Part shown: positions 22,352 through 40,314 of the stretch, piece after piece
Layout: each line of letters opens with the position of its first letter
Numbering within the stretch: the stretch's first letter is position 1
Assembly (NCBI GenBank): GCA_028711705.1
Contig: JAQTRS010000003.1
Coordinates: forward strand, 109,966-173,965
Length of the DNA: 64,000 nt
Direction of reading: 5' to 3'
Source of the DNA: Candidatus Moraniibacteriota bacterium
GTDB taxonomy: Bacteria; Patescibacteriota; Minisyncoccia; Moranbacterales; UBA1568
Translations under genes and position numbers: made by a program
Notes under the pieces: model-generated
What the model was told of the DNA's origin: nothing
Database searches by the model: none
The model's input: only the letters and a program-made list of their open reading frames with translations

Positions 22352-22405
22352 TCAAAGAGATGCGGAAGTTTCGACCGTATCTCACGGGCTGATCGTTTTA
22401 AAAAT

Positions 22406-24778
22406 ATGAGCATGGAATCAACCCGACTGCCCATCGTGAGCCGAAGGGAAGTCGCTAACGACGTTTTCGAGGTTTCTTTCGGCCTTTCTAGAGCGGATTT
22501 TCATTTTCAGGCAGGCCAATATATCCGGGTGGTTATCCCGCATCTTTCGTATCCCGATGGGCGGGGGAATTTTCGCGATTTCTTCATCAGTTCATCGCCT
22601 AACAATCACGAGCATATTTCTATAGCCTTCAGAAATACGGGGAGCGGTTTCAAAAAGACGCTGCTTGAATTGCCTCTCGGGTCATCGGTGGTCGTGCGTG
22701 GGGCATATGGTCTGCTCGAGCTGCCTCAAGAGCATCATCAGGGCCTGGTATTCATCGCCTTCGGTATCGGTATTACCCCCTTTCTGAGCATGATTCGCCT
22801 TGCAGCCGAGCGGGGATATGCAGGGTACCTGACGCTTATCTGCGTGCATGATGACATAGATTCGGTGCCCTATCTTGATGAGTTGAAGCAACTTCAGGAA
22901 AAAATACCCCGTTTCATCCTGAGGCAGAAAAGGGCTCCTTTGGACGAGGAATTCTTGCGTATACAAACGACGCATTCCAAAGAGTCTTTGTGGTATATTT
23001 CCGGTCCGCCCGATCTGGCACGTGAGGCTTTCGATATGCTCTGCGGCCTCGGGGTGCCTTTGGGAAATATCGTTTCTGAGGAGATGCTGGGTTATGGCGA
23101 GGGGGTGCCTGTGACATCTTCCGCAGCGGCCCAGCCGTTGCCAACTGTAGGCAGTTCGCCGAATGACCATGCGTTTTTCTTGGATGCCAAGAAATTGCGG
23201 TCCATCATCGAAACCAGCGCCGAGGGCGTGGTTATCACCAATCCCGATGGACTCATCTTGTATGTCAATGCCGAGTGGCAGAACATTACCGGTTGGAAAA
23301 GCGACGATGTCGTGGGCAAGATGACGCCCCGCATCCTCAAATCGGGAAAAACCAGACCGGAGGAATACGAGAAGCTGTGGAAAACCATCAGGCGCGGCGA
23401 GATAGCTCATATCGACATTATCAATAAGCGCAAAAATGGCAATCTGTACTATGCCGAGGATATCATACTGCCCCTCAAGAACGATCAGGGTGAGGTAACG
23501 GAGTTCGTCGGCTTCCAGCGAGACGTTTCGGAGAAGCAGCGCTATATGAAGCAATTCATACTGCACTCCGAAGAGCTGGCTGAGCAGAACAAGTTCCTTG
23601 AGAACACGAAAAAGGCGATGCTCAATCTGCTCGAGGATTCTCAGGAACTGGAAAAAAACCTGGAGCTCGAGAAGGCGGCTATCAAGAAGGAAAAAGAGAA
23701 GTCGGAAGGCATTTTGCAGTTCCTGAAATCCATCGGTGATGGCGTGCTCGCTGTTGATCTGGATTCGAATATTATCTTTATGAACAAGATGGCGGAGAAT
23801 CTGTCTGGATACACGTTCGAGGAGGTACAAGGCAAATACTATACCGACGCCCTGCATTTCATCCTGGAAAAAAACCCCGATGTCTCCTACCCGCGCTTCG
23901 TCGAGCAGGTGATAAAGACGGGCGTGATCAATAAGCTGCCGAGCCACACCTCTTTGGTGAGGCGGGATGGTAGCATCGTTCCCGTGTCGGACAGCGCGGC
24001 GCCGATTCGTGATGCTTCGGGGGTTATTGTCGGTTGCATCATCGTATTCCAAGATGATACCAAGAAGCGCGAATTGGATCAGATGAAGGATGGTTTCATT
24101 TCGGTGGCGGCGCATCAGCTTCGGACGCCGCTGGGGGGTATGCGATGGAATATGGAGCTGCTGCTTTCCGAGGATGTCGGGGAACTTCCTGAGCAGGTGC
24201 GCGTCGAGCTTGAACAGCTCTACGAAAACAGCCAGCGCATGGTGACGCTGGTCAATGATCTTCTCAACACCTCGCGTATCGACAATGAGGTTTCCAGGGT
24301 GAAATACGAATCCGAATCCGCGGATATCATCACCCTGCTTCAGAAAGTGATACACGAGGTTGCCGATGAGGCGAAAAAACGTGCGGTGACCATACGATTC
24401 GCCAATGAAGGAACCTTCGATTCGGTCCGTATCGTTCCGAAAAATATATACGAAGCCTTCCAGAATCTGATCGTCAATGCCGTGAAGTACAGCGATGCGG
24501 GGGACACGGTGACGGTCGGGGTGGAGCAGCACAAAGAGGCTATGCGTGTCACGATCGAGGATACGGGAATCGGTATTCCGAAAGATCAGCAATTGAAGCT
24601 ATTCTCGAAGTTTTTCCGCGCTTCCAATGCTATCCTCAAGGAGACGGACGGCAGCGGCCTAGGGCTGAGCGTCGCGAAGTTTTTTATCGAAGAGAATGGG
24701 GGGCGGATCCTTTTCGAGAGCGAGGAGGGAAAGGGGACGACTTTTTATGTTGATTTGCCCCTGGCGGCGAAAAAGTGA
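22406..24778 (+). CDS. hybrid FNR-like flavoprotein domain - PAS - PAS - histidine kinase
   Basis: N-terminal 230 aa are paralogous to the 20030 protein (FQAGQYIRVV, RDFFISSSP, FGIGITP). These are followed by two PAS domains, a HisKA H-box (VAAHQLRTPLGGMRW) and HATPase_c (GSGLGLSVAKFF). Confidence 0.75.
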   Translation: MSMESTRLPIVSRREVANDVFEVSFGLSRADFHFQAGQYIRVVIPHLSYPDGRGNFRDFFISSSPNNHEHISIAFRNTGSGFKKTLLELPLGSSVVVRGAYGLLELPQEHHQGLVFIAFGIGITPFLSMIRLAAERGYAGYLTLICVHDDIDSVPYLDELKQLQEKIPRFILRQKRAPLDEEFLRIQTTHSKESLWYISGPPDLAREAFDMLCGLGVPLGNIVSEEMLGYGEGVPVTSSAAAQPLPTVGSSPNDHAFFLDAKKLRSIIETSAEGVVITNPDGLILYVNAEWQNITGWKSDDVVGKMTPRILKSGKTRPEEYEKLWKTIRRGEIAHIDIINKRKNGNLYYAEDIILPLKNDQGEVTEFVGFQRDVSEKQRYMKQFILHSEELAEQNKFLENTKKAMLNLLEDSQELEKNLELEKAAIKKEKEKSEGILQFLKSIGDGVLAVDLDSNIIFMNKMAENLSGYTFEEVQGKYYTDALHFILEKNPDVSYPRFVEQVIKTGVINKLPSHTSLVRRDGSIVPVSDSAAPIRDASGVIVGCIIVFQDDTKKRELDQMKDGFISVAAHQLRTPLGGMRWNMELLLSEDVGELPEQVRVELEQLYENSQRMVTLVNDLLNTSRIDNEVSRVKYESESADIITLLQKVIHEVADEAKKRAVTIRFANEGTFDSVRIVPKNIYEAFQNLIVNAVKYSDAGDTVTVGVEQHKEAMRVTIEDTGIGIPKDQQLKLFSKFFRASNAILKETDGSGLGLSVAKFFIEENGGRILFESEEGKGTTFYVDLPLAAKK

Positions 24779-26280: not shown

Positions 26281-26339
26281 ATTTCGAAGCATGGTGTTAT
26301 GTGTTACAATTCAATACATAATACCATGCCTTTTTATTT

Positions 26340-27977
26340 ATGATGCAGATTATTTTTGGAGCCGCTGCTTTGAATTTTTTGGTGGGAGTCCTTCTTCTCA
26401 TCCAGAGGCGGCGTACGAAGGAAATAATCGCTTTCGGTGTCTTCTCTTTGATAACCGGCGTTTGGGGTCTATCGAATTTTCTTATTTACTATTACAACAG
26501 CGGCGTGTTTTTGGAGTCGGCCTATGCCTTCGGTGCCCTTACGGCGTCTTCGATGTTGGCCTGGTCATTTTTATATAAGCAAGGGTCGAATCGCACGAAC
26601 GTGGCGATTTTTATATATGCCTTGGGCATACTCATTTTCTGCCTTTCTTACGTCAATGGGTATGCTATTGGTGATATTCGTGGTATCACGGCAAGCGGCG
26701 TCGATGCCGATCCAGGATTATTTTCCGACGAGTATTCACTCTTTGTACTGGTGTCGCTGCTCTGGTCCTTGGCGAACGTGTTTTCGGTGTTCAGGAAATC
26801 TATCGGTTTTGAGCGGAAGCAGGCCCGATTGGTATTGGTTGGTCTGTTCGTATTCGTCGGAGTGACCATTATCGTGAGCGCTATCTTGCCGATTTTCGGT
26901 ATTTTGGGGTATACCAATCTCGACAGCCCGAGTTCTTTGATTTTCGTCATCTTCGTGGCATTCGCTATCGTGCGGTATCACTTCTTGGAGACACGGGTGA
27001 TTCTCGCGCAGGTGTTGGTGGGTGCTTTGGCTACCGTGTCGATCATCCAGCTTCTGAGTTCGACGACCGTGTTTGATGTGGTCATTACGATGATATCGCT
27101 TTGTATCGTCTTGGGTTTGGGGATATTTCTTGTACGGAGCGTGTTTAATGATATCCAGCACAAGAACGAGCTGCAGCGGGTGAATGTGCAGCTCAAGCGG
27201 AGCAAGCAGCGCTTGGGACAGGTAAACGAGCACCTAATGCAGCTCGATCAGGCCAAAACGGACTTTATCAATATCGCTTCCCATCAGCTCCGCACGCCTT
27301 TGGGAAGTATGCGTTGGAGCATGGAGATGATTCTTGCGGATGAGATGGGACCGATATCGGATTCAGCCAAGGATGCGCTCCGGGAGATATATGAGAATAA
27401 TCAGCGTATGGGCGATCTGGTGAATGATTTGTTGAGCGTGGCTCGCATCGAGCAGGGCAAGGTTGTGGAAAAAGCCGTAGCGACGGATATCGCGTCCGTT
27501 ATCAGCGAGGCGGTCAAGATGATGCAGCCCGAGGCGAAGCACAGGCAGATCACATTGCGATTCGATATGCCGACCAAGGATATCCCATCGATCATGGTGG
27601 CGCCGAAACGCTTTTTTGAGGTGATTCAAAACCTTATTTCCAACGCGATTAAGTACAATCGCCCAGAGGGAATGGTGATCGTCGCGATGGAAGTATCGAC
27701 ACGGCATATGCGCATTAGCGTGACGGACACAGGCATCGGTATCCCTCAATCGGAGCATGCTAAGATATTTTCGAAGTTTTTCCGTGCCGGGAACGCCTTA
27801 TCCACGAATACCGAAGGCACGGGACTGGGTCTGTTCGTGGCGAAGTCCTTTGTGGAGGAGAATGGCGGTATCATACGCTTCAAAAGCGAGGAGGGTGTGG
27901 GAACCACGTTCATTATCGAGTTGCCGATAACGGTGCCGACCGCGCAAGAGGATCAGCGCCAGGGCGAAGCGCGGTGA
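26340..27977 (+). CDS. sensor histidine kinase with N-terminal 7-8 TM domain
   Basis: About 250 aa of consecutive TM helices, then a HisKA H-box (IASHQLRTPLGSMRW) and HATPase_c (GTGLGLFVAKSF). There is no periplasmic domain and no receiver. Confidence 0.8.
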   Translation: MMQIIFGAAALNFLVGVLLLIQRRRTKEIIAFGVFSLITGVWGLSNFLIYYYNSGVFLESAYAFGALTASSMLAWSFLYKQGSNRTNVAIFIYALGILIFCLSYVNGYAIGDIRGITASGVDADPGLFSDEYSLFVLVSLLWSLANVFSVFRKSIGFERKQARLVLVGLFVFVGVTIIVSAILPIFGILGYTNLDSPSSLIFVIFVAFAIVRYHFLETRVILAQVLVGALATVSIIQLLSSTTVFDVVITMISLCIVLGLGIFLVRSVFNDIQHKNELQRVNVQLKRSKQRLGQVNEHLMQLDQAKTDFINIASHQLRTPLGSMRWSMEMILADEMGPISDSAKDALREIYENNQRMGDLVNDLLSVARIEQGKVVEKAVATDIASVISEAVKMMQPEAKHRQITLRFDMPTKDIPSIMVAPKRFFEVIQNLISNAIKYNRPEGMVIVAMEVSTRHMRISVTDTGIGIPQSEHAKIFSKFFRAGNALSTNTEGTGLGLFVAKSFVEENGGIIRFKSEEGVGTTFIIELPITVPTAQEDQRQGEAR

Positions 27978-28040
27978 TTTTATGGAGAAATGAGAGACAT
28001 CTGGTATACTTGGAAGAGAGACACATTAATATAAATATGT

Positions 28041-28442
28041 ATGACCGAAATAGTGCAGGGTCAAGATGCGCCAAAGGTTTCTCTTTTGGTGGTCGAAGAC
28101 GACAAGTTCTACGCTAATATCTATCGTGTGAAATTCACCAAGGAAGGATATGATATCCGCTTGGCAGGCGATGGCGATGAGGCGCTCAAGATGGCGCGCG
28201 AGCGCAAGCCCGATCTTATTTTGTTGGATCTGATTATGCCGAAAAAGGACGGGTTCGAGACGCTTCGGGAATTGAAAGCCGATACGAATCTTAAGGATAT
28301 TCGGGTAATCGTTTTTTCCAATCTCAGTCAGGATGAGGACATCAAGCGCGTAAAAGATGCTGGCGCATTCGACTATATCGTCAAGGCTAACATTTCGCTT
28401 CAGGATATGGTGGCCCGTGTGAAGGGGTATGTGGCCCAGTAA
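28041..28442 (+). CDS. single-domain response regulator (CheY-like receiver)
   Basis: 133 aa with acidic pocket LVVEDD, phospho-acceptor D in LILLDLIMPKKDG, and a conserved Lys near the C-terminus. No output domain. Confidence 0.85.
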   Translation: MTEIVQGQDAPKVSLLVVEDDKFYANIYRVKFTKEGYDIRLAGDGDEALKMARERKPDLILLDLIMPKKDGFETLRELKADTNLKDIRVIVFSNLSQDEDIKRVKDAGAFDYIVKANISLQDMVARVKGYVAQ

Positions 28443-28459
28443 TAACATCTGCTTCGAAT

Positions 28460-30175
28460 ATGCCAGAACAACAACCATCGGAAGAACTTATACCGGACGA
28501 GGTACTGTACCAGTTATTGCTTGAGACAGGATCGGTACCGCAGGCATCGCTTGATGTCGCCGCGCAGCGTGCTAAGGAGGAGCATACTTCTTTGTATGAG
28601 GCTATTTTATGGCATGATTTCGTGTCCGATGAGAAACTCTGCCGATTGGCGGCCGATTTTTTGCAGATGCCCTTCGTGCTGCTTGCGGGAATCGCCATCG
28701 AGGAAGATGTCTTGCGAACGATTCCGGAAGTGGTTGCCAAGAAAAACGCCATCATCGTTTTTCGGAAAGATACGGATGGCTTGCATATCGCGACCAAGCA
28801 GCCAGATAATGTTCAGATTATCGATTTTATACGAAGAAAGACAGGGATGTCCGTTACAGTGTATCTTTCGATGTCCCAAGATATAGCGAACGCACTCCTT
28901 TTATACGGAAAAAATATCACCAAAGCATTTGACGATATTATACACGAGAGTCTACTTGATGCGAAAGGGTCGTCGAGCGATCAGAATGCGTTGCCTATCA
29001 TCAAGATAGTAGACAATATCCTCTCGTATGCGTATCAGAACAAGTCCTCTGACGTGCATATCGAACCGCGAGAAGAAGGGTCTTTGGTGCGCTTTCGTAT
29101 CGATGGCATCTTGCATGATATCGTTACGCTTCCGCTTGAGATCCATCCGCAGATCGTGTCGCGCATAAAAGTGCTAGCAAAGCTCCGTACGGATGAACAT
29201 CAGGCGCCTCATGATGGCAAGATCCGTTTTGAATCGGAGGGTGAAGCTTTGGACATCCGTGTGTCGGTGGTGCCGGTAACGGAAGGGGAGAAAATAGTGA
29301 TGCGCCTCCTCTCGGAGCGTTCGCGTCAGTTTTCTTTGTCCAATCTCGGTTTCGGATCGAGCGATTTGGCTAAGGTGAACGAAGCCTATAACAAGCCATA
29401 CGGAACTATCCTGGTTACCGGACCGACCGGTTGTGGAAAGACTACTACGTTGTACTCCATATTGAAGCTTCTTAATAATCGCAAGGTGAATATAATGACC
29501 ATCGAGGATCCGGTGGAATATGATATGGAAGGCGTCAATCAGATTCAGGTGAATACTAAGGCGAATCTTACGTTTGCGACCGGATTGCGGAGTATTCTCC
29601 GTCAGGATCCCAACATCATTTTGGTGGGTGAAATACGTGACAAAGAAACGGCTGGTATCGCGATCAATCTGGCTATGACCGGACACCTCGTACTTTCTAC
29701 GCTGCACACCAATGATTCGGCGACAGCGGTTCCTCGTATGATCGATATGGATATCGAACCATTCCTACTCTCTTCGACTATCAATGTCATTGTCGCCCAG
29801 CGTCTCGTGAGAAAGATTCATGATGCTTGCCGTGTCAGCGAAGAGGTTTCTATTGAAGATCTGAACCAACGCTTGGGAGCTGCGCTCGTACATGAAGTAT
29901 TCGGTGATGCGAGCGAGTCTGGCAAAAGTGTGCGTCTGTACAGAGGAAAAGGATGCGATTTGTGCCATCAGACAGGATATCAGGGGCGCATCGGCGTGTT
30001 TGAGGTTATGACTATTGATGATAAGTTGCGCACCGCTATCACGAATCGCAAGGATGCGGCGACTATTGCCGATATCGCTATCGCTTCCGGGATGACGACG
30101 ATGCTTGAGGATGGTTTGGAGAAGGTAAAGCAAGGGATAACGACTTTGGATGAGGTGTTGAGGGTTATCAAATAG
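28460..30175 (+). CDS. pilB: type IV pilus assembly ATPase PilB (GspE family)
   Basis: N-terminal GspII_E domain, Walker A GPTGCGKTTT, His box, Walker B/Asp box and a tetracysteine-like motif (CDLCHQTG). 571 aa. Confidence 0.9.
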   Translation: MPEQQPSEELIPDEVLYQLLLETGSVPQASLDVAAQRAKEEHTSLYEAILWHDFVSDEKLCRLAADFLQMPFVLLAGIAIEEDVLRTIPEVVAKKNAIIVFRKDTDGLHIATKQPDNVQIIDFIRRKTGMSVTVYLSMSQDIANALLLYGKNITKAFDDIIHESLLDAKGSSSDQNALPIIKIVDNILSYAYQNKSSDVHIEPREEGSLVRFRIDGILHDIVTLPLEIHPQIVSRIKVLAKLRTDEHQAPHDGKIRFESEGEALDIRVSVVPVTEGEKIVMRLLSERSRQFSLSNLGFGSSDLAKVNEAYNKPYGTILVTGPTGCGKTTTLYSILKLLNNRKVNIMTIEDPVEYDMEGVNQIQVNTKANLTFATGLRSILRQDPNIILVGEIRDKETAGIAINLAMTGHLVLSTLHTNDSATAVPRMIDMDIEPFLLSSTINVIVAQRLVRKIHDACRVSEEVSIEDLNQRLGAALVHEVFGDASESGKSVRLYRGKGCDLCHQTGYQGRIGVFEVMTIDDKLRTAITNRKDAATIADIAIASGMTTMLEDGLEKVKQGITTLDEVLRVIK

Positions 30176-30286
30176 CAGCCGAAATGTTTAGCTTTCGATC
30201 GACGGGCGATCGAGTCCGTTTGTGGATTGTGTGATATGATGCATCGGACCGGTATTGAGAGGAGTTTCATTTTTTAACGCATATGT

Positions 30287-31345
30287 ATGACTCTTTTTTC
30301 GCGGGCGAGTTTTTTGGATATCTTGTTGTTTACAAAACACCTTTCGGTGATGGTAAAGAGCGGCATTACAGTAGCCGAGTCAGTCAAATCCCTCAAGCAT
30401 CAGGCGAAAACAGGCGCTTTCAAAAGGATTCTCGATCAAGTATCGGCCGACATCGAAAACGGCGATCCTCTCGCGAAGGCACTTGCGAAGTATCCTCAGG
30501 CTTTCAGTCATTTCTATATCAATCTTATCGCTATCGGTGAAGAGTCGGGAGTGCTTCAGGAGAATTTGGATTTCCTGTCCAAGCAGTTGAGCAAGGAATA
30601 CGCGCTTCGAAAGAAAGTACAGGGCGTGCTCCTGTATCCGGCGATCGTGCTGACGGCCGCCTTTGTGATCAGCGCCCTGGTGAGCATCTTCGTTTTGCCG
30701 AAACTTGTGAATCTTTTTGAGTCTTTCGATGTCGTTTTGCCGTTATCGACGCGTATCCTCCTATCCATCGCTCATGTCATGCAATCGCATGGAGTGATCA
30801 TATTCGTAACGATTCTTGCGGCGAGCATTTTTTTTCGGGTTTTGGCTTTCGTGCCACAGATCAGAAAATGGTATCACTGGTTATTTTTGAGTATGCCGAT
30901 TATCGGGCCATTCCTGCGAAATGTATACATTTCTTCCTCGTGTCGTGATTTGGGAATGATGCTTCAGGCGGGATTATCGATCACTCGTGCGCTGCGAGTG
31001 GAGTATGACACGATAAACAATCTCGTATTCAAGGAATATGTGAAGAGTTTGCAACTTTCTATAGCAAGGGGCGGGACTTTGTCGGGCGAATTATTGACGG
31101 GGAATTTTTCGAAGATACCGCCTTTGGTTTCGAAAATGATTGAGGTCGGAGAAGGGACCGGAAAACTCGAAGAATCGCTTCTATATCTGGGGGATTTCTT
31201 CGAAGAGGAGATTGATAATACATCGAAGAATTTTTCCACTGTTTTGGAACCGATCTTGCTTTTATGTATCGGATTGGTGGTCGCATTTGTCGCGTTGGCG
31301 ATCATATCGCCGATTTATTCATTGACGGGATCTGTCCATAGGTAA
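30287..31345 (+). CDS. pilC: type IV pilus inner-membrane platform protein PilC (GspF family)
   Basis: Two GspF-type repeats and three TM segments. 352 aa. Confidence 0.85.
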   Translation: MTLFSRASFLDILLFTKHLSVMVKSGITVAESVKSLKHQAKTGAFKRILDQVSADIENGDPLAKALAKYPQAFSHFYINLIAIGEESGVLQENLDFLSKQLSKEYALRKKVQGVLLYPAIVLTAAFVISALVSIFVLPKLVNLFESFDVVLPLSTRILLSIAHVMQSHGVIIFVTILAASIFFRVLAFVPQIRKWYHWLFLSMPIIGPFLRNVYISSSCRDLGMMLQAGLSITRALRVEYDTINNLVFKEYVKSLQLSIARGGTLSGELLTGNFSKIPPLVSKMIEVGEGTGKLEESLLYLGDFFEEEIDNTSKNFSTVLEPILLLCIGLVVAFVALAIISPIYSLTGSVHR

Positions 31346-31356
31346 ACTGAGTTGCT

Positions 31357-31785
31357 ATGAAAAAAGGATTCACGCTTGTCGAGCTATTATTGGTCATCGC
31401 GCTCATTATGATTGTCGGGATGCTTTCGGCAGCTTTTTATACCCGATTCCTGATGCAGAATAATGTTATCAATACGACTACGCAATTGGTCGGCAGCCTT
31501 CGGAAAGCGCAGATGTATAGTATGATGGGAAAACGGGGCGGTTCCTGGGGTGTGGCGGCTTTTCCTGGATCGATAGTGCTGTTTCAGGGTAATTCATATG
31601 CGTCGCGCGATGAGGCTTTGGATGAAGTGTTTGTCACGAGGCCCGATATTTCTACGGGAGATTTTTCGGAAATAGTCTTTGCGAAGACGACTGGACTTCC
31701 TGATATCGCACCGACTATCGTTATTTCCGAAGGTGGCGAGACGCGTACGTTGACGGTCAGTAATCAGGGTATAGTGAGCCAATAA
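31357..31785 (+). CDS. prepilin-type N-terminal cleavage/methylation domain protein (minor pilin)
   Basis: MKKG-FTLVELLLVIALIMIV: class III signal with Gly at -1 and Glu at +5. Confidence 0.7.
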   Translation: MKKGFTLVELLLVIALIMIVGMLSAAFYTRFLMQNNVINTTTQLVGSLRKAQMYSMMGKRGGSWGVAAFPGSIVLFQGNSYASRDEALDEVFVTRPDISTGDFSEIVFAKTTGLPDIAPTIVISEGGETRTLTVSNQGIVSQ

Positions 31786-31807
31786 CTATATGACAAGGAG
31801 ATTGAAA

Positions 31808-32284
31808 ATGAATACGCGTGAGTGCAAGGGATTCTCCGTTTTGGAGATCATTTTGGCCGTGGGAATTTTCGTGGTTATGGTTTCGGGGATGGTGATCGCC
31901 GTGCTTTCAGGCATGGAGACGAACCGTCTCGGACAAGAGGAAACGGTCGCGACGGAATATACGACGGAGGGGATAGAGGCAGCCCGATCGATACGTAATC
32001 TGAATTTTTCGGCATTGAATGATACTTCCGGAACTGGCATCGATCAAGTTTCCGGCGTGTGGTCTTTTTCTGGAAACGAAAACGTGCTTGATGGGAAATA
32101 TACGAGGGTTATTTCGATCGAGAGCGTGCGGCGGGATGGTTCCGGTAATATCGTTGAGAGCGGCGGCGGTATCGATCCGGATACGAAAAAAGTGACGGTG
32201 ACGACATCATGGGCTATTTCTTCATCGAGATATGACTCGGTGGTACTGATGACATATCTTACCAACTGGAAAGCTCCGATATGA
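31808..32284 (+). CDS. prepilin-type minor pilin
   Basis: RBS aaggag, then ATG at 31808. Class III signal KG-FSVLEIILAVGIFVV. Confidence 0.65.
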   Translation: MNTRECKGFSVLEIILAVGIFVVMVSGMVIAVLSGMETNRLGQEETVATEYTTEGIEAARSIRNLNFSALNDTSGTGIDQVSGVWSFSGNENVLDGKYTRVISIESVRRDGSGNIVESGGGIDPDTKKVTVTTSWAISSSRYDSVVLMTYLTNWKAPI

Positions 32285-32829
32285 TTATGAAACATACACA
32301 GCATACTATGCGGAGAGGATTCACTTTTATCGAGGTGCTTTTGTATATGGGCATCGTTTCATTGATGCTCACAGCGATCGTTTCTTTTGCATGGGTCATT
32401 ATCGATGCGGGAGTGAAGAGCGCTACGCAACAGGAAGTTTACGCCACGACAAGATATGTGAGCGAGCGGCTGATGTATGAAATCAGGAACGCTGCCGGTA
32501 TCGATGTTTCCGATTTCGATGTGAATCTTGCAAGTGATGAGACGAAAAATTGTTCTTTGGCGCAAGAGGGAACAAGTGAGTCGCTCCGTATCTTCGTGTC
32601 GAATAACCAAGTATTTATGAGGCTCCCTTCTTTGGAGATTGTCCCTTTGCAATCGACGGATACGAAAGTGACGAATCTTACCTTTACAGACTATTCTTCC
32701 GGTGATAGCAAGGCAAAATACGTCGGGTTTGTTTTGACGGTAGAGTCGAATTATCCGGGTGCAGCAGGACGGCAGGAATATCAGGAAAGCGTTACGATAC
32801 GATCCGGTGTCGAAGTGAGAAGTCATTAA
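32281..32829 (+). CDS. prepilin-type minor pilin
   Basis: Class III signal RRG-FTFIEVLLYMGIVSLML. The start overlaps the previous stop (ATGA). Confidence 0.65.
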   Translation: MIMKHTQHTMRRGFTFIEVLLYMGIVSLMLTAIVSFAWVIIDAGVKSATQQEVYATTRYVSERLMYEIRNAAGIDVSDFDVNLASDETKNCSLAQEGTSESLRIFVSNNQVFMRLPSLEIVPLQSTDTKVTNLTFTDYSSGDSKAKYVGFVLTVESNYPGAAGRQEYQESVTIRSGVEVRSH

Positions 32830-32879
32830 TCGTGTGCGAAGAGCGGGGTATTTTGTGACTTATTATAACAAACGAAGGT

Positions 32880-33254
32880 ATGAACAAAGGTTTTATTGCC
32901 ATGACAACCGTATTGATCCTTTCTGTGGCGATGGTCGCGATTATGACCACGGTGTCTTTGCTCTCTATCGGGGAATCGCAATCAGGATTCGCTTTGATGA
33001 AAGGGGAGGGCGCTTTACAATTTTCGGAAGGTTGCGCCGAGGATGCGCTGCTGCGTATTCGTGCCGATGAAGCCTATATTGGAGGCACTTTTTCTCATCC
33101 GGAAGGCGAATGCACGGCGGATATCGCTTCGGACGGGAGTATTAAAACAATCACGGTACGATCGAACGCTGTTGATTATAGCCGAAGCATCTCGATCATG
33201 CTTGAGCGGACGGTGACAGGTATTACGCTCATAAGCTGGCACGAGATACCGTAA
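32880..33254 (+). CDS. pilin-like membrane-anchored protein (PilX-like minor pilin candidate)
   Basis: MNKG-FIAMTTVLILSVAMVAIM hydrophobic N-terminus, lacking Glu at +5. Assigned by operon position. Confidence 0.4.
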   Translation: MNKGFIAMTTVLILSVAMVAIMTTVSLLSIGESQSGFALMKGEGALQFSEGCAEDALLRIRADEAYIGGTFSHPEGECTADIASDGSIKTITVRSNAVDYSRSISIMLERTVTGITLISWHEIP

Positions 33255-33337
33255 GCAATTGCCTTAATTTTCATTGTTATGGAAAGCTTGAGTAACACAG
33301 GGTTTATAAATTTCCAGAAAAACGATGAAGATATGGT

Positions 33338-34711
33338 ATGATATCGTATATGGGCATATTTTCAAAACAAAAAAACATCATCTTTATTTCCCATTCACGC
33401 TTGCGTGCAGTGCAGGTGAATCTGGGGCGTGCCAATGCAGGGAAGGTGATCGAGGATATCGTATGGAACAAAGAGACATTGCCATCGATACTTTCGGTTA
33501 TCCGTACAAAAATTGGGAGCGATATCCAGCTCGCACTAAGCGAAGATTTGGTATACGTCGTAAGTTTCGCTTTGAAAAACGCGACGAAATACACCCGTCT
33601 GACGATAAAGCAGGAGGCTTCGAGCTTTATCCCTGAGAATTTAGACGAGGTGCCTTGGGATTTCCGCAGTATCGCTGCTATCGTCGGCGATAAGCGTATC
33701 GGTGTCAGCAAGGGGGTGCAGGTAGCAGCGGTTTCGAAAGTTTTCCTGCACGACATCGCGCCGGCATTCGTATCGGCCGGTTTCGTGGTGGAGGCGATGG
33801 AGGCTGAATCATGCGCTTTAGCAAGACTGATGCATGATCAGGCCAGTCCGATACTTATCGTGCATACGGACCATGATAGAACCCTGCTAGTTATTCTTGA
33901 GCGCGGCGTCGTAATGGCAACACAAAATTTTGCGGAATCCATACATTCGGATGATATCGAGAGGTTCATAAGTTCGGCGCAGAAACATTTTTCATTGCGT
34001 ATCGCATCGGTTATTTTTTCCGAAGAATCGACGAAATCGCTCGGCGATGTGAGGGATTCGCTTCAGAGCAAGGGCTTTTCGGTGCAAGAGGCTTCTTTTG
34101 ACCCTATTCTCGGTCTTGCTTTGAAAAAAGATATCAGAGGAAATGATGCAGACGTATTGAATGTCAATCTGCTACCTCAAGAGAAACGAAACTTTTTGAG
34201 CCTCATACGGAGCCCTCGTGAAAAGCGATTACTGATCATTTTTTTTATTGTTTTTATCCTCGGATCGGTTGCAGTATCTGGGATGTTTATGTTTAATCGT
34301 TCAGTAAAGGCACCGATAAAGCAGGAGTCTGTCATAGCGGATATTCCTATTGAGGTTGCGAAACCCTCTGTGCCGCAAGATAATGCAGACGGTCTTGTGC
34401 CTCCATCCGGATCTGGTGCTGTCGCTGATTATGCGATCAGCATTCTTAATGGAAGTGGCATCCGGGGTGAGGCAGCCGGAGTAGAGAAGTTGGTTCGTGC
34501 GGAAGGCGCGACAAAGGTCCGTATCGGCAATGCAGATAACAATTCGTATACCAAAACCAAGATACGGGCAAAAAAAACCGTGCCTCCTTCGATGTCTCAA
34601 TCGATTGTGAAGGTATTGTCTTCGCGTTACGTTGTGGAAGATGTCGAAATATTGGATGATGGTGCGGAAGATGATATTATGGTAATAGTTGGCAGTCAAA
34701 AAAACGAATAA
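33338..34711 (+). CDS. PilM-PilN fusion protein with C-terminal LytR_C-like domain
   Basis: About 280 aa of cytoplasmic PilM-like region, then the PilN hallmark LNVNLLPQEKR immediately before a TM helix (LLIIFFIVFILGSVAVSGMF). The C-terminal segment (ADYAISILNGSGIRGEAAGVEKLV...VKVLSSRY) resembles the LytR_C domain. Confidence 0.55.
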   Translation: MISYMGIFSKQKNIIFISHSRLRAVQVNLGRANAGKVIEDIVWNKETLPSILSVIRTKIGSDIQLALSEDLVYVVSFALKNATKYTRLTIKQEASSFIPENLDEVPWDFRSIAAIVGDKRIGVSKGVQVAAVSKVFLHDIAPAFVSAGFVVEAMEAESCALARLMHDQASPILIVHTDHDRTLLVILERGVVMATQNFAESIHSDDIERFISSAQKHFSLRIASVIFSEESTKSLGDVRDSLQSKGFSVQEASFDPILGLALKKDIRGNDADVLNVNLLPQEKRNFLSLIRSPREKRLLIIFFIVFILGSVAVSGMFMFNRSVKAPIKQESVIADIPIEVAKPSVPQDNADGLVPPSGSGAVADYAISILNGSGIRGEAAGVEKLVRAEGATKVRIGNADNNSYTKTKIRAKKTVPPSMSQSIVKVLSSRYVVEDVEILDDGAEDDIMVIVGSQKNE

Positions 34712-34724
34712 AAGGATATATTTT

Positions 34725-35201
34725 ATGAAGCAGTCTGGTTTTCGGACAGAAAAAGGATTCACTCTTATCGAACTTCTTTTGGTGATAGGGATTATTTCAG
34801 TTTTGGCAGTCGTTGTGTTCGTTGCGCTTGATCCCGCGAAACGATTTGCGGATGCGCGTGATGCGAGGCGAAATTCCGATGTCCAAAATATCCTCAGCGC
34901 TATCCATCAATATATTATCGACAACAAAGGCGCTTTGCCTTCCGGACTCGGTACGACTGAAAATCAGATCGGCACGGCTACTTCCGGATGCGGCCTCGTG
35001 GCGGGCGAGTGCAATGTTGGTGCCACCGCCTGTCTCGATATGTCCGCTAATTTGGCGAAGTATCTCAAGTCGATACCGACCGATCCGCAGAACGGTACGG
35101 CTGGTACGACGCATTATTCCGTTCAAACAGATGTTAATGGCATCGTGACCGTACGCGCATGTGATACGGAAGGAACGACTGCTATCTCGATTTCGCGCTG
35201 A
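34725..35201 (+). CDS. type IV pilin (major pilin candidate)
   Basis: Class III signal KG-FTLIELLLVIGIISVLAVVVFVALDPAKRF. C-terminal Cys pair (CGLVAGECNVGATAC) for a disulfide loop. Paralog of the 48002 gene. Confidence 0.75.
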   Translation: MKQSGFRTEKGFTLIELLLVIGIISVLAVVVFVALDPAKRFADARDARRNSDVQNILSAIHQYIIDNKGALPSGLGTTENQIGTATSGCGLVAGECNVGATACLDMSANLAKYLKSIPTDPQNGTAGTTHYSVQTDVNGIVTVRACDTEGTTAISISR

Positions 35202-35291: not shown

Positions 35292-36365
35292 ATGACCATG
35301 CATCAATCCATACGAACCTCTATTCAGAAACTCTTTTCCTTGCAGGTCGGTTTTTTTCTTATTCTCGCTTTGCCTGCGAGTACGAATTATAAGTTGAAGG
35401 ATTTCGGTATCGGAAGCGGCGGTTCCTCGACAGCTGCTTCCGCGAATTATAAGGCGGATGTAATAAGCGGCGAAACGGATAATGGCAACCTTACCGGAAC
35501 GACGTATAATTTAGGAACCGGACTTGCGTTTACCAATCAGGCCGATGTTCCGGCGGCGCCGACATTCACCAACCCGAGTAACTATTACAATAAGCTCAAG
35601 ATCGTTCTTGACGCGTCGAGCAATGCGACGGATACGAAATTCGCGATCGCTATCAGCCCCGATGATTTCGTGACGACGTACTATGTGCAAAGCGACGCCG
35701 CTATCGGTATGACATTGGGATCCGAGGACTATCAAACCTCTACCGGCTGGGGGAGTGCATCCGGGACGATCATCATCGGTTTGACGCCGAATACGACCTA
35801 TAAAGCGAAAGTAAAGGCGATGCAGGGGGATTTCACGGAAACGGGCTATGGGCCGATCGCCACCGCATCCACGATCAATCCGACTATGACCTTCGATATC
35901 GACGTATCGGCAACGGATACGGATACCAGTCCGCCATTCACGATCAATCTCGGTGACTTAATAGCCAGCACTATCACGGACGGGCCCCAGAAAATATGGG
36001 TTGATTTCTCGACCAACGGGGAGCTTGGCGGACGGGTGTATGTGGTCGCGCAAAATGCGGGGTTGCAAAGTGTTGCGGCGAGCTACAAAATCAATGCGGT
36101 TACAGGAAATCTCTCTGCCTTACCGCAAGGATTCGGTGCGCAGGGATCCTCGGTGGCTAATGGATTATCGATTGCTACGCTGTATGATCTTTCGGGGGAT
36201 AATGTCGGTGTGACAGATACCAACATCCGTGAAATATTTTCTTCAACGTCTCCGACGACAGGAGGACGAGGGTCATTTCTTCTCAAGGCGAAGTCGGCAG
36301 CCACTACGCCATCAGCGAGCGATTATGCGGAAACACTTACTGTTATCGCATCCGCAAGTTTCTGA
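35292..36365 (+). CDS. secreted Thr/Ser-rich surface protein (paralog A1)
   Basis: Signal peptide and a beta-rich T/S/G/N-rich body. C-terminal motif SDYAETLTVIASASF, shared with the 36469 protein (TDYTDTLTVVAAGRF). Confidence 0.55.
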   Translation: MTMHQSIRTSIQKLFSLQVGFFLILALPASTNYKLKDFGIGSGGSSTAASANYKADVISGETDNGNLTGTTYNLGTGLAFTNQADVPAAPTFTNPSNYYNKLKIVLDASSNATDTKFAIAISPDDFVTTYYVQSDAAIGMTLGSEDYQTSTGWGSASGTIIIGLTPNTTYKAKVKAMQGDFTETGYGPIATASTINPTMTFDIDVSATDTDTSPPFTINLGDLIASTITDGPQKIWVDFSTNGELGGRVYVVAQNAGLQSVAASYKINAVTGNLSALPQGFGAQGSSVANGLSIATLYDLSGDNVGVTDTNIREIFSSTSPTTGGRGSFLLKAKSAATTPSASDYAETLTVIASASF

Positions 36366-36468
36366 TTCATGTTCTTTGACAGTATTTTCGTGCATGTTAT
36401 ACTGTAATAAATTAGGTATAAAAATAAAATAAAACAATATGTACCGTGAGATATCCTTAGGAAATGGC

Positions 36469-37497
36469 ATGCGCAAAATCTCTTTCAGCAGCATAGTTGT
36501 TTTCGTTTTGGTTTTGATTCTACCGATACTTTTTTCCGAAGAAGCTCATGCTGCCGGTTTGCAGCAGGCCTATGTCCGCCTCGATCGTTTGGCGGATGGT
36601 GCTACGACCGGGGGGATGGTGTGCGCCAAGTCCGCTACCGCTTCGGTAGAAACGACCGTCAAAGTTACGTTCCCGTCCGGTTTCGCCACGGTGGATACTC
36701 CGGCCAATTGGACGGTGACTACGACTAATATCCCTGCGGATGCGACAGCGTGGATCGGTATCGGTACCGCTTCGGCGGCTTCTGGTCAGGATGTCACGTT
36801 CCCGAGCGGCGATATGGTAGTGGGCACGCTGTATTGCTTCAACTTTACGGGGACAAGCACGCTGACAAACGCCTCTGCTGCGAATAATCTGGTAGGTACG
36901 ATCACGACGCAACTCGCCGGCCCGACTGCTATCGATAGTTCGAGTTATGCACTGTCTATCGTTACGAATGATCAAATCGTCGTATCTGCATCCGTACCTG
37001 CGACATTCTCTTTCGCTTTGAGTGGAAATACTGATACTATGGGTACGTTGTCCACTACGACCGCTTCTTCTACTGGTAAGACCGTGACCATCGGAACTAA
37101 CGCCGCAAGCGGATGGGTGGCCTGGGTTAAAAGCGCCAACGCCGCATTGAATTCTGCCTCGACCGGTGCAACTATCGCTACGGCCGGAACGGTGAATAAT
37201 GCTCCATCGGATCTGGCTGCGCTTACCGGGTATGTGTTGGACGTTGACGTCACGACCGATAGTGCCACTGGTACGGGTTCTGTAACTCAGGCTTCTGATT
37301 ACGGTGCGGAATATAATGGAACCAATACGACTTCCGGAGGTACGCTTTCGACAACCTTCCAGCCGATCGCCGCTTCGAGCGGAACGACCGATGGGGATGT
37401 GCTGACCCTCATAGAACGTGCGAAGATCAGCGCTGTCCAGGGCGCTGCCACCGACTATACGGATACCTTGACCGTGGTGGCTGCCGGACGCTTTTAG
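36469..37497 (+). CDS. secreted Thr/Ser-rich surface protein (paralog A2)
   Basis: Signal peptide MRKISFSSIVVFVLVLILPILFSEEAHA. Same composition and C-terminal motif as the 35292 protein. Confidence 0.55.
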   Translation: MRKISFSSIVVFVLVLILPILFSEEAHAAGLQQAYVRLDRLADGATTGGMVCAKSATASVETTVKVTFPSGFATVDTPANWTVTTTNIPADATAWIGIGTASAASGQDVTFPSGDMVVGTLYCFNFTGTSTLTNASAANNLVGTITTQLAGPTAIDSSSYALSIVTNDQIVVSASVPATFSFALSGNTDTMGTLSTTTASSTGKTVTIGTNAASGWVAWVKSANAALNSASTGATIATAGTVNNAPSDLAALTGYVLDVDVTTDSATGTGSVTQASDYGAEYNGTNTTSGGTLSTTFQPIAASSGTTDGDVLTLIERAKISAVQGAATDYTDTLTVVAAGRF

Positions 37498-37568
37498 GCT
37501 CAAGATATGGTATATATAAAAGGATTCCGGTTCCGTCGGAATCCTTTTTACTTTGAGAGAATGTTCGG

Positions 37569-38651
37569 TTGTTGTATACTGGTGATATTATGAATCATAT
37601 GCGCTTCCAGAATAACAAAGCACTCTTTTTAGGTCTTGTTTTTGTTTTCATCCTCATCCTTTTTCCGTTACCGTCCTCTGCTGCCGATGGCAGTCTTCAT
37701 CTCGTCACATCGCCGTTGCCTATCAACCTGGTCACGACACCAGGCTCTTCCGTCACGACCCCTATCAAGATCAAAAACGGAGGCACACAAACAGAACAGC
37801 TCAAGATTACCTTGATGAAATTCAAGGCCTATGAATCCAATGGGCAACCGCAATTGATGGATCCGGAACCGACGGACGATTTCCTTACATGGGCTTCTTT
37901 TTCAGAAGATACGTTCACTGCTGCTCCCGATGAATGGAAAACTATCACCGCAACCTTCAATGTCCCGCAGGATGCGGCATTCGGATACTATTATGCTATT
38001 GTTTTTTCGCGTGCTCATGATGAAATTCCGACCGATTCGAAACAGACGGCCGTTGTGGGAGGCACCGCCGTTTTAGTGCTCCTCGAGGCCCGTGTCGATG
38101 ATGCGAAACGCTCCGTCGAGGTGACTGAATTCAGCACGGACAAGCAGATCTATGAATTCCTCCCGGCAACATTTACTGTCAAGCTCAAAAATACCGGCAG
38201 CGTTCATGTCGCGCCAAGAGGCAATATCTTCATCAACAAAGGAGATGAACATGACGTCGCGCTGCTTGAGATCAATGCCAATAAGGGGAATATCTTGCCC
38301 AATTCGACGAGAGATTTTAAGGAACCCTGGAAGGATGCTTTTCCGGTGTATGTGGAAAAAAAGCAGGATGGGAAAGTGGTCCTGGATGAAGCCGGCAACC
38401 AGGTGATGGAGCTTGTATGGGACTTCGGACAGGCTTCCAAACTCAGGTGGGGAAAGTATACCGCCAAGATGCTCCTCATTTACGATGATGGTCACCGGGA
38501 TGTCCCGATCGAAGGAGAGGTCTCCTTTTGGGTGGTGCCGTGGAGGTTGATCGGTGTCGGATTGTTCATCCTTGTTTTCGTGTTGATCGGTTTGAAGAAT
38601 ACACTGCAGAATATGTGGAAAAACGTGCACGGCTGGTTTGAGAAAAAGTAG
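37569..38651 (+). CDS. cell-surface protein, signal peptide + C-terminal TM anchor (paralog B1; DUF916/DUF3324-like architecture)
   Basis: Signal peptide, an ectodomain of about 300 aa with HVAPRGNIFI, and a C-terminal TM (LIGVGLFILVFVLIGL) with a short basic tail. Confidence 0.5.
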   Translation: MLYTGDIMNHMRFQNNKALFLGLVFVFILILFPLPSSAADGSLHLVTSPLPINLVTTPGSSVTTPIKIKNGGTQTEQLKITLMKFKAYESNGQPQLMDPEPTDDFLTWASFSEDTFTAAPDEWKTITATFNVPQDAAFGYYYAIVFSRAHDEIPTDSKQTAVVGGTAVLVLLEARVDDAKRSVEVTEFSTDKQIYEFLPATFTVKLKNTGSVHVAPRGNIFINKGDEHDVALLEINANKGNILPNSTRDFKEPWKDAFPVYVEKKQDGKVVLDEAGNQVMELVWDFGQASKLRWGKYTAKMLLIYDDGHRDVPIEGEVSFWVVPWRLIGVGLFILVFVLIGLKNTLQNMWKNVHGWFEKK

Positions 38652-38678
38652 GGTATAACAGTTGTATACTCAAATAGA

Positions 38679-39653: not shown

Positions 39654-39656
39654 CCT

Positions 39657-40286
39657 ATGAATGAAGAAGATATTCCTGAAGCAAAGCCGAAAAATATGGT
39701 GAAAAAGTTAGTATTCCTTTTGATGTGCGCGGCCATGTTTGCCGGCGTATGGATGGTGACGCGGATGCAACAACCTTCTCAGGGAGTCATCAGGAAGAGT
39801 CCGACACAAGTGAGTAGCGTGACAGCTCCGCCTCAGGAGAAGATCCGCCTCGAGGGAGAGTATCTTTCATTCGCGCATCTTTCTTCGTATACGCCGGTGG
39901 CGAAGCTTGAAGAATCAGAAGCGAAAGACGGAGAAGTTTCTGTCAAAAAACCGGGAGCATTCTTGCAATCCGATTTCCTTATCGCTTATACGGCCGCATC
40001 GTCCAAAAAAATAGCCGTTTCCGTAGAGTCCTTGCCGAGCAGCAATCTTGAGGATAATGCTTCGTTCAAATTTCGTATTTCGAGCCCAAAACTGTATACT
40101 CAAAGTATGGCTGATATCGGCAAAGAAAAAGTGATTCTCTTTGTGCGGGATGGGGATACGCGCGAGCAGTCGGTGTTTCTGAGACATAATGCTTTGGTGG
40201 TGCCGGTCGTTCTTTCCTCATCAAATACGAGTTTGGAATCTATGCGAGAGGAACTTCTGGCGATTGCCAACAGTGTCGAATGGTAA
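39657..40286 (+). CDS. membrane-anchored hypothetical protein
   Basis: N-terminal TM (LVFLLMCAAMFAGVWMV), then a soluble domain of about 170 aa. No recognised motif. Confidence 0.45.
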   Translation: MNEEDIPEAKPKNMVKKLVFLLMCAAMFAGVWMVTRMQQPSQGVIRKSPTQVSSVTAPPQEKIRLEGEYLSFAHLSSYTPVAKLEESEAKDGEVSVKKPGAFLQSDFLIAYTAASSKKIAVSVESLPSSNLEDNASFKFRISSPKLYTQSMADIGKEKVILFVRDGDTREQSVFLRHNALVVPVVLSSSNTSLESMREELLAIANSVEW

Positions 40287-40314
40287 TAGAGGCATTAAGT
40301 CAGTGTGCGAACGT

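Follow-up and report, generated by a model that had tools for sequence, protein, structure and literature searches.

Which protein aligns and anchors the type IV pilus of an ultrasmall bacterium whose envelope has no outer membrane? Type IV pili play a central part when ultrasmall CPR bacteria seek out and cling to their hosts, and CPR pilus machinery has so far been read mostly through analogy with Gram-negative systems. We studied a 64-kb stretch of DNA (the window) taken from a MAG contig of 176,858 bp, the host being a monoderm CPR bacterium, Candidatus Moranbacteria. Positions 26340 to 35201 (forward strand, +) hold genes for two regulators (a histidine kinase and a receiver-only protein), for PilB and PilC, for three minor pilins and a pilin-like protein without Glu5, for a bitopic protein of 457 aa, and for a major pilin. 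PilB, PilC, and major and minor pilins with class III signals were all present, as in the type IVa pilus set. A first-pass annotation of the same DNA had proposed a compact type IV pilus operon, which the gene identities uphold, and its gene order (receiver, pilB, pilC, pilins, fusion, major pilin) matches the sequence and the Pfam and NCBIfam profiles. We confirm that the compact type IV pilus cassette of this CPR/Patescibacteria bacterium is real.

The first gene of the cassette (26340 to 27977, +) encodes a sensor histidine kinase with HisKA and HATPase_c domains and about nine N-terminal membrane helices, as judged from hydrophobic segments. A terminator-like hairpin lies just 5' of this gene (26289 to 26329). 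A CheY-like response regulator that consists of a receiver without an output domain follows (28041 to 28442, +; Response_reg, 9e-25, aa 16 to 127 of 133), and next to it are an extension ATPase of the PilB/GspE type whose N terminus bears an MshEN-type domain (28460 to 30175, +; T2SSE, 4.8e-126; MshEN, 6.9e-13) and a PilC/GspF platform protein (30287 to 31345, +; T2SSF twice, 4.8e-53). PilC is about 60 N-terminal residues short of the reference models, matching positions 60 to 399 of 401 in the GspF model; its relatives have 348 to 359 aa.

The three minor pilins share a G/F...E5 signal (the slash marks the G-F junction). Minor pilin 1 (GspH/ComGD-like, MKKG/FTLVE; 31357 to 31785, +) matched N_methyl at 1.5e-5 and, weakly, ComGD and GspH at about 1e-5, and its position is kept in the related loci. 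Minor pilin 2 (...CKG/FSVLE; 31790 to 32284, +), assigned from its sequence and a weak ComGE match (8e-4), has 164 aa here versus 525 to 616 aa in its relatives, with 42 to 46% identity across the first 165 or so residues. Minor pilin 3 (...RRG/FTFIE; 32281 to 32829, +; N_methyl, 1.8e-4) has orthologues in all loci. So does the fourth, pilin-like protein (MNKG/FIAMT; 32880 to 33254, +), which was assigned from its sequence, gave no match in Pfam or NCBIfam, and is 34 to 48% identical to its orthologues, always immediately 5' of the PilM-like gene. It lacks Glu5, an absence that marks GspK among the four minor pseudopilins. The major pilin (MKQSGFRTEKG/FTLIELL; 34725 to 35201, +) matched N_methyl at 6.7e-6 and, weakly, GspG and ComGC. 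Its start is probably the ATG at 34725 and not the TTG at 34689, and orthologues with 52 to 56% identity lie directly 3' of the PilM-like gene in every locus.

The cassette was found in five independent CPR loci (this window and four related ones), in which the Parcubacteria and Microgenomates groups are both represented. The ten-gene order is kept in L002/L007 (Levybacteria), L005, and L009, all with the histidine kinase upstream of the response regulator and PilB; L004 keeps nine genes of the order, with neither a histidine kinase nor a response regulator upstream of PilB. A dedicated two-component system with CheY-like output is attached to the cassette in four of the five loci. Receiver orthologues with 47 to 53% identity lie immediately 5' of PilB in L002/L007 and L005, as do receiver genes in L009. 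The downstream genes are not kept beside the cassette in the other loci.

The bitopic protein (33338 to 34711, +; NCBI start, 33350) is known to NCBI only as a "LytR C-terminal domain-containing protein." It had been annotated as a PilM-PilN fusion, and the AF2 model yielded an actin-like domain, a transmembrane (TM) helix, and an outside LytR_C domain. The cytoplasmic portion (aa 8 to 262; 33359 to 34123, +; pLDDT, 86.9) has an FtsA/actin-like fold of the PilM/GspL type that is nearest to solved PilM structures. It is degenerate: in this domain of about 262 aa, the second lobe is modeled as a bare core without an insertion, and there is no 2B subdomain. At the sequence level, PilM signals were weak and consistent (TIGR01175, E = 1.5e-4; PDB PilM profile, E = 1.3e-3), the TIGR01175 score of 20.9 bits being far under the cutoff of 133, and 3 of 72 family members matched PilM_2. 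The Pfam PilM, PilN, and GspL models gave no match to the protein (PF11104, none at E ≤ 0.1), nor was a GspL model among its NCBIfam matches. The phosphate-1 and phosphate-2 Asp/Gly residues are not conserved in the family columns, in a register taken from secondary structure and not from residue-level superposition. The first-hairpin columns read I-[LIV]-[FY]-I-[ST]-K, with no Asp, and the second hairpin, H-T-D-H-D-R-T here, is not conserved.

PilN proteins carry a cytoplasmic motif of the [IV]NLLP type followed by a TM helix. The bitopic protein has a comparable arrangement: V276-N-L-L-P280 precedes a single TM helix at aa 293 to 318 (34214 to 34291, +; AF2 helix, 293 to 317; hydropathy, 2.06), which is preceded, in the cytoplasm, by basic residues and followed by a Pro-rich linker (aa 319 to 362). 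The reported PilN hallmark, LNVNLLP, is present at aa 274 to 280; it does not stand directly before the helix, as had been stated, but about 13 residues away. It belongs to a juxtamembrane motif, K-x-D-I-x-G-x-D-x-x-V-L-N-[LIV] (here KKDIRGNDADVLNVNLLP, aa 263 to 280; 34124 to 34177, +), that resembles the PilN N terminus, has no regular secondary structure (pLDDT, 78 to 85), and is kept even in variants without the second lobe. Only VLN[LIV] is conserved family-wide, and "LLP" is confined to close relatives (L274, 64/72; N275, 57/72; P280, 12/72). The proposed fusion is upheld for a PilM-like cytoplasmic domain joined by a TM helix to LytR_C, whereas PilN is reduced to a short motif plus that helix, its periplasmic domain being missing.

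In place of that domain, aa 365 to 453 (34430 to 34696, +) form an extracytoplasmic LytR_C domain, as the first-pass annotation had proposed (Pfam PF13399, E = 2.2e-8; 35.3 bits versus a gathering threshold of 22.2). HMM searches of the whole protein thus matched LytR_C, while PilM stayed under its cutoff and PilN (PF05137) gave no match. The domain runs strand-helix-strand-strand-helix-strand by DSSP and resembles PDB 2m5y (Rv0431/VirR; profile E = 8.6e-8; Foldseek, 8e-5). Its recurrence in two other proteins of the window was borne out by Pfam for one (59678/59810 to 60322; 2.8e-11); the other (49658 to 50458) had no Pfam match and was recognized, over the full-length domain, only by our family-specific HMM (E = 3.8e-6). 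LytR_C was matched in 71 of the 72 family members, and in a larger set, 133 of 153 sequences had the full PilM/GspL-like, TM, and LytR_C architecture. Eighteen of the 153, including the Levybacteria orthologue inside the same cassette, are without LytR_C, so the domain is not indispensable. Searches with the family profile returned 3,077 matches at E ≤ 1e-3 and 130 at E ≤ 1e-30; the design is widespread, being shared by at least 130 sequence clusters. The combination of a degenerate PilM/GspL-like domain with LytR_C is undescribed in the literature that we searched.

How might such a machine work? We think it likely that the genes form a self-contained type IV filament cassette in which one GspL-like LytR_C protein replaces the PilM/PilN/PilO alignment complex. 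The membrane histidine kinase and the CheY-like receiver would act as a control system, and PilB (motor) and PilC (platform) would polymerize the major pilin on a filament primed by the four minor pilins, one of them without Glu5. The actin-like domain, presumably nucleotide free, may keep PilB at the membrane beside PilC as GspL does with GspE; GspL is itself described in reviews as a PilM-plus-PilN fusion that anchors GspE, and its periplasmic domain, like PilN, PilO, and GspM, has a permuted ferredoxin fold (PMC10191384; PMC4471445). A pocket in PilM takes the conserved N-terminal motif of PilN (PMC5805733), and in the CPR protein its own VLN[LIV] segment probably fills this pocket (the 1A/1C groove). 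The single TM helix and Pro-rich linker would carry LytR_C outside, where it could replace the ferredoxin-like domains of PilN and PilO by dimerizing, by binding the cell wall (a putative activity), or both, and thereby fix the machine in an envelope that lacks an outer membrane. The LytR_C domain of VirR interacts with itself and with other LytR_C domains (PMC11832169). The prepilin peptidase, and PilT if there is one, must have its gene at another place in the genome.

The lack of PilT and of a prepilin peptidase (PilD) in the window, already noted at first pass, held in every search: tblastn with PilB returned only PilB and no second T2SSE ATPase, a six-frame scan found a single T2SSE-type Walker A, no plausible ORF matched Peptidase_A24, and there was no GxGD.K motif. 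Around each of the four related loci, the flanking 10 kb likewise contained neither gene. Because five proteins of the cassette carry class III signal peptides, PilD must exist elsewhere, and its absence from the window despite being required means that local absence says little. This bears on the first-pass reading of an attachment pilus rather than one for twitching, a dedicated, nonretractile filament in a genome having only the extension ATPase, which the evidence does not support and which we regard as possible but rather unlikely. The missing PilT here and near the related loci agrees with it, as does T4P-2 of the Saccharibacteria strain TM7x, whose locus lacks PilT and which contributes to host binding, not motility (PMC12206443). 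However, our view is restricted to 64 kb of a longer MAG contig, PilT and PilD occur widely among CPR, often at other sites (PMC6744442), and TM7x, the one CPR studied genetically, has both in a different pilus locus (locus one). The flanking adhesin island, which the first-pass annotation had enlisted for this pilus, looks like a pilus operon of its own, of the Pam type with donor-strand exchange, and so provides no evidence on type IV pilus function.

The same absence of PilT would suit a Com-like pilus by which a CPR cell unable to make nucleotides scavenges nucleotides and DNA. The gene content mirrors ComGA-GG (ATPase, platform, and one major and four minor pilins), the pilins weakly match the NCBIfam ComGD, ComGE, ComGF, and ComGC models, and competence genes are widespread in CPR (PMC6744442). 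Yet PilB, with its long MshEN N-domain, scored 522 to 527 bits on the PilB/GspE models versus 250 on ComGA (cutoff, 300), a PilM-like gene is present where reviews list no such component for Com systems (PMC10191384), and the PilT-less T4P-2 of TM7x is dispensable for competence (PMC12206443); we find DNA uptake improbable. Less probable still is an endopilus like that of type II secretion: instead of a long surface pilus, a short pseudopilus would drive secreted proteins, the neighboring surface proteins for example, across the cell wall. The GspL-like component, the four H/I/J/K-like minor pilins with one lacking Glu5, the local absence of PilT, and GspE and GspF as the best NCBIfam models for ATPase and platform would all fit, and a secretion role has been proposed for a second T4P gene set in the Gram-positive Clostridium perfringens (PMC11580942). 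But the ATPase scored practically equally on GspE (TIGR02533, 527 bits) and PilB (TIGR02538, 522 bits), GspC, GspM, and a secretin are all missing, the genes downstream are not kept beside the cassette in the other loci, and long type IV pili are known on CPR cells (PMC12206443).

Under the preferred reading, a filament cassette with a GspL-like alignment protein, the locus would represent a recurrent minimal design in which one LytR_C protein stands in for PilM/N/O. A large family now labeled "hypothetical" or "LytR C-terminal domain-containing protein" becomes recognizable, and LytR_C receives a testable role, association or wall anchoring of an envelope machine, that bears on mycobacterial VirR and Cei. 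We are doubtful of the stronger proposal of a distinct, lineage-wide CPR type IV pilus machine in which LytR_C replaces the PilN/PilO periplasmic domains and serves both to dimerize the alignment protein and to tie the machine to the wall. If true, the enigmatic LytR_C domain would gain a concrete structural role, and the TM-plus-LytR_C "solo" proteins (49658 to 50458 and 59810 to 60322) might be PilO/GspM-like partners through LytR_C-to-LytR_C contacts.

Among known systems, PilM and PilN of type IVa pili (Thermus 2YCH, Pseudomonas 5EOU, and Myxococcus 3JC8) resemble the bitopic protein in their weak profile matches and in the VNLLP motif about 13 residues ahead of the TM helix. Unlike these two polypeptides, the CPR protein is one; its actin-like domain is about 90 residues shorter than PilM, without the 2B subdomain and with ATP-binding residues not conserved, and a Pro-rich linker and LytR_C take the place of the PilN periplasmic coiled coil and ferredoxin-like domain. 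There is no PilO, and PilM/PilN scores are far under the family cutoffs. The TM7x pili likewise belong to a monoderm CPR bacterium without a secretin, and T4P-2 shares a pilB-pilC-pilin locus without PilT, but the TM7x loci carry separate PilM, PilN, and PilO. A "GspL domain PilM" family was previously listed as CPR enriched (Meheust et al. 2019, PMC6744442); neither that study nor the TM7x paper (PMC12206443) speaks of a fusion to LytR_C, of a two-component system attached to the cassette, or of a fixed order of ten genes. The Mycobacterium tuberculosis LytR_C "solo" proteins VirR (Rv0431) and Cei (Rv2700) share a membrane-anchored LytR_C domain outside the cytoplasm, and the bitopic protein matched Cei weakly in NCBIfam. 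VirR and Cei act in cell wall remodeling and vesiculation, whereas the CPR protein has a PilM/GspL-like cytoplasmic domain and lies inside a pilus operon with no evident LCP catalytic partner. Closest in build are GspL, PulL, and EpsL, which are also bitopic, a single TM helix linking a truncated actin-like domain in the cytoplasm to an alpha/beta domain outside; the cytoplasmic domain of GspL is nucleotide free. Unlike GspL, whose outside domain is ferredoxin-like and whose models give no sequence-level match, the CPR protein belongs to a monoderm host and to a cassette with no secretin and no GspM-, GspC-, or PilO-like gene, and it retains the PilN-like VLN[LIV](LLP) motif. Its architecture is that of GspL, with LytR_C in place of the PilN periplasmic domain.

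The type IV pilus cassette comprises ten genes (window positions 26340 to 35201), every one on the + strand, with intergenic gaps of -4 to 111 nt. It opens with a histidine kinase (26340-27977, +), which carries HisKA and HATPase_c domains and about nine hydrophobic segments at its N terminus, and a receiver-only response regulator (28041-28442, +; Response_reg, 9e-25). PilB (28460-30175, +) matched T2SSE (5e-126) and MshEN (7e-13) and scored 527 bits with the GspE model and 522 bits with that of PilB. PilC follows (30287-31345, +; T2SSF in two stretches), then three minor pilins with the signal G/F-x-x-x-E (31357-31785, 31790-32284, and 32281-32829, all +), a pilin-like protein with G/F present and Glu5 absent (32880-33254, +), a bitopic protein of 457 aa that ends in LytR_C (33338-34711, +), and the major pilin (34725-35201, +; MKQSGFRTEKG/FTLIELL). 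The gene order and identities claimed for the operon in the first-pass annotation are borne out by these Pfam and NCBIfam matches. Going by orthologues, the major pilin probably starts at 34725, not at the TTG at 34689. Since the kinase and the CheY-like receiver come without a DNA-binding output, they would suggest posttranslational control of the pilus motor. Two more sensor proteins, a CHASE4-HAMP-PAS protein and a multi-PAS histidine kinase, are encoded a few kilobases upstream of the cassette kinase (20810-24778, +), and the density of signaling genes there is unusually high for a small CPR genome.

We collected related loci with a seven-sequence alignment as the query, which returned few loci. 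The cassette occurred in the same order at four of them: L002/L007 (Candidatus Levybacteria), L004, L005 (on a 607-kb contig), and L009. The shared order is histidine kinase, one to three receivers, PilB, PilC, four small pilin-like proteins, the PilM-like (bitopic) protein, and the major pilin; at L004, neither kinase nor response regulator lies upstream of PilB. Identity to the window proteins was 58 to 60% for PilB, 51 to 53% for PilC, 52 to 56% for the major pilin, and 26 to 33% for the PilM-like protein. As it thus occurs in both the Parcubacteria group (Moranbacteria) and the Microgenomates group (Levybacteria), the cassette is either old or mobile within the CPR. A 6.7-kb Logan contig carries the same PilB. 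Measured against the GspF/PilC models, PilC lacks about 60 residues at its N terminus; a gap of 111 nt (30176-30286) precedes it. A truncated pseudogene was ruled out by relatives of the same length (348 to 359 aa), and the short form, kept in all related loci, is thus a lineage trait. Minor pilin 2 has 164 aa in the window versus 525 to 616 aa at the orthologous position elsewhere (L004, 5700-7550; L005, 7161-8984; L007, 7527-9104). Either the window protein has lost, or the related proteins have gained, a large module at the C terminus that may be an adhesin.

The 457-aa protein had been described as a PilM-PilN fusion with a LytR_C domain at its C terminus. The terminal domain was confirmed by the HMM search, in which LytR_C was the only Pfam match (aa 365-453; E = 2.2e-8; 35.3 bits versus a cutoff of 22.2), and NCBI labels the protein [quoted passage not shown] The fusion held for the PilM-like fold, as seen by structure prediction, but not for the sequence models: PilM_2 and PilN gave no Pfam match at E ≤ 0.1, and NCBIfam PilM (TIGR01175) stayed below threshold (E = 1.5e-4; 20.9 bits versus 133). 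The N-terminal domain has no model of its own in NCBIfam or Pfam. An AlphaFold model built on an alignment of 72 full-length relatives reached a pLDDT of 86.9 (51.8 in an earlier AF2 model from three sequences alone). Fold comparison of aa 8-262 scored 17.0 with Thermus PilM (2ych), 16.2 with both Myxococcus PilM and Pseudomonas PilM:PilN, 16.0 with cytoplasmic GspL (4pht_X; root mean square deviation, 3.0 Å; 211/224 residues), and 15.9 with FtsA. Foldseek ranked PilM at the top for the same residues (6e-15); with the pLDDT 51.8 model, it returned mostly PilM/actin-like matches, plus 2m5y. Compared with PDB sequences, the family profile matched Pseudomonas PilM (1.3e-3) and the LytR_C protein Rv0431 (8.6e-8). 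An FtsA-like division protein was ruled out: FtsA scores below PilM, and minor and major pilin genes flank the gene at every locus.

Relative to PilM, the actin-like domain is short by about 90 residues, and its second lobe is modeled as a bare strand-strand-strand-helix-strand-helix-strand-helix core without an insertion. The phosphate-binding positions of actin-like ATPases are hydrophobic or unconserved in the family, with the register taken from secondary structure. The cytoplasmic domain of GspL is not known to bind nucleotide. Because it is short, has a bare second lobe, and shows no conserved phosphate-binding residues, the cytoplasmic domain studied here is more like GspL than like ATP-binding PilM. 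A single transmembrane (TM) helix (aa 293-318) with basic residues on its N-terminal side is followed by a Pro-rich linker and LytR_C. This layout would put LytR_C on the outer side of the membrane; the modeled secondary-structure order of LytR_C is strand-helix-strand-strand-helix-strand. We class the bitopic protein as a probable alignment protein of GspL-like build whose ectodomain is LytR_C, set in a conserved CPR cassette.

Between the actin-like domain and the membrane lies a strongly conserved segment, K-x-D-I-x-G-x-D-E-x-V-L-N-[LIV], which reads KKDIRGNDADVLNVNLLP in the window protein. The N terminus of PilN has the consensus [IV]NLLP, to which VNLLP of the window protein conforms. 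L274 is kept in 64 of 72 members, N275 in 57/72, and P280 in 12/72; the segment has no regular secondary structure in the AlphaFold model (pLDDT, 78 to 85). PilM holds a pocket for the conserved N-terminal motif of PilN (PMC5805733). In 44 family variants, the second lobe is missing altogether but the motif is still present, which fits binding to the first lobe, the PilN site on PilM; judged by this conservation, it may dock there as PilN does on PilM.

An exhaustive HMMER profile search found 3,077 relatives at E ≤ 1e-3, of which 130 reached E ≤ 1e-30. Family members with names are called "hypothetical protein" or "LytR C-terminal domain-containing protein." Among 153 family sequences, 89 had the full domain, TM helix, and LytR_C, 44 had a half domain with TM helix and LytR_C, 12 had the full domain and TM helix with LytR_C absent, 6 had the full domain alone, and 2 (P0004 and P0005) had TM helix and LytR_C with no PilM-like domain. 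The half-domain forms (e.g., P0054, P0060, and P0071) comprise the first lobe, the K.DI.G.DE.VLN motif, the TM helix, and LytR_C, a set that seems to be the functional core. As the Levybacteria orthologue is without LytR_C, this domain is helpful, not essential.

A tblastn search of the window with PilB returned PilB alone, with no second PilB-type ATPase. The six-frame scan of the window found one T2SSE-type Walker A and no GxGD.K prepilin-peptidase motif, and Peptidase_A24 matched none of about 60 plausible window ORFs. These searches agree with the original description of a window without PilT or prepilin peptidase. Neither a second T2SSE ATPase nor a Peptidase_A24 gene occurred within 10 kb at the related loci; together, the searches cover the 64-kb window of a 176,858-bp contig and the 10-kb flanks of those loci. 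As the window has no PilD despite five class III signal peptides, essential pilus genes sit elsewhere, so that little follows from the lack of PilT in the window. The PilT and PilD genes of TM7x are located in locus one, and its T4P-2, which has no PilT, serves host binding rather than motility or competence (PMC12206443). Possible roles of the pilus described here are attachment, DNA uptake, and secretion; among these, we tentatively rank attachment or host contact first.

Directly after the major pilin, six + strand genes (35292-41790) encode secreted or membrane proteins, a flanking adhesin island that had been cited in favor of an attachment pilus. The 35292-36365 product weakly matched NCBIfam "CPR-type pilus protein PamT" (E = 4e-6; aa 26-83 only; 26 bits versus a cutoff of 240) and shares a C-terminal ...TLTV[IV]A...F with 36439-37497. 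The products of 37569-38651 and 38679-39653 are paralogous (E = 7e-11), each with a signal peptide, a TM helix plus basic tail at the C terminus, and weak Ig-like/fibronectin-type beta-domain matches (fn3_5 and WxLIP_PGBD). Comparison of the downstream proteins with PDB sequences gave nothing useful. According to a 2026 preprint, Pam pili of the CPR consist of Ig-like pilins linked by donor-strand exchange, have FimC/PapD-like chaperones with a C-terminal TM helix, and occur mainly in Saccharimonadia and Microgenomatia (10.64898/2026.03.03.709456). The two paralogues share the PamC/PamD chaperone architecture, yet Moranbacteria (Parcubacteria group) lie outside the main Pam groups. Since the island genes have no counterparts beside the cassette at other loci, include the PamT match, and show the Pam-chaperone architecture, a second, unrelated pilus is more likely than a part of the type IV pilus; the sequence evidence, though thin, favors a Pam-type (donor-strand-exchange) operon. 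The longest terminator-like hairpins of the region (26289-26329, 17 pairs, and 42130-42156, 10 pairs; both +) flank the stretch from the histidine kinase to gene 40189-41790. The cassette and the Pam-like island may thus form one transcription unit, although promoter and terminator scans gave match counts no higher than in shuffled sequence.

Farther downstream, a 1,924-aa protein with a Laminin_G_3 (concanavalin-like) domain (42196-47970, +) is followed after 10 nt by a second type IV pilin (48002-48478, +) that is 61% identical to the cassette major pilin; the two may form a pilin-adhesin pair. In Levybacteria (L007), a 633-aa Laminin_G_3 protein (11998-13896) likewise lies just downstream of the cassette. 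Elsewhere, 3675-8850 (+) holds six T4SS_pilin (TrbC/VirB2-like) genes (at 3675, 5591, 6213, 6737, 7243, and 7924), several of them greatly extended at the N terminus; no ATPase of a type IV secretion system turned up in the window. LytR_C had also been reported in two other membrane proteins. Both are solo proteins in which a TM helix at the N terminus and a linker of low complexity precede LytR_C. The domain was detected by Pfam in 59810-60322 (+; 2.8e-11) and only by a family-specific HMM in 49658-50458 (+; E = 3.8e-6). The former divergently adjoins a DUF4012 protein gene (58251-59666, minus strand).

Reviews equate GspL with a PilM+PilN fusion that tethers the GspE ATPase to the membrane, and describe permuted, mutually pairing ferredoxin folds in PilN, PilO, the GspL periplasmic domain, and GspM (PMC10191384; PMC4471445). 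The LytR_C domain of mycobacterial VirR associates with itself and with its counterparts in LCP enzymes (PMC11832169). In the model with the best support, the cytoplasmic domain of the CPR protein would clamp PilB beside PilC, and LytR_C outside would dimerize and/or engage the wall, an arrangement that would stand in for PilN/PilO where the envelope has no outer membrane. Type IV pili are already well known in the CPR, and a 2019 paper counted a "GspL domain PilM" family with those enriched in the CPR (PMC6744442). In the literature searched, no paper joined LytR_C to pili, and none described a PilM-like/LytR_C fusion. The solo LytR_C proteins have the same topology as PilO/GspM. The bitopic protein itself fails sequence membership in both PilM and PilN and is predicted to work most like GspL, yet it falls outside the GspL sequence families.
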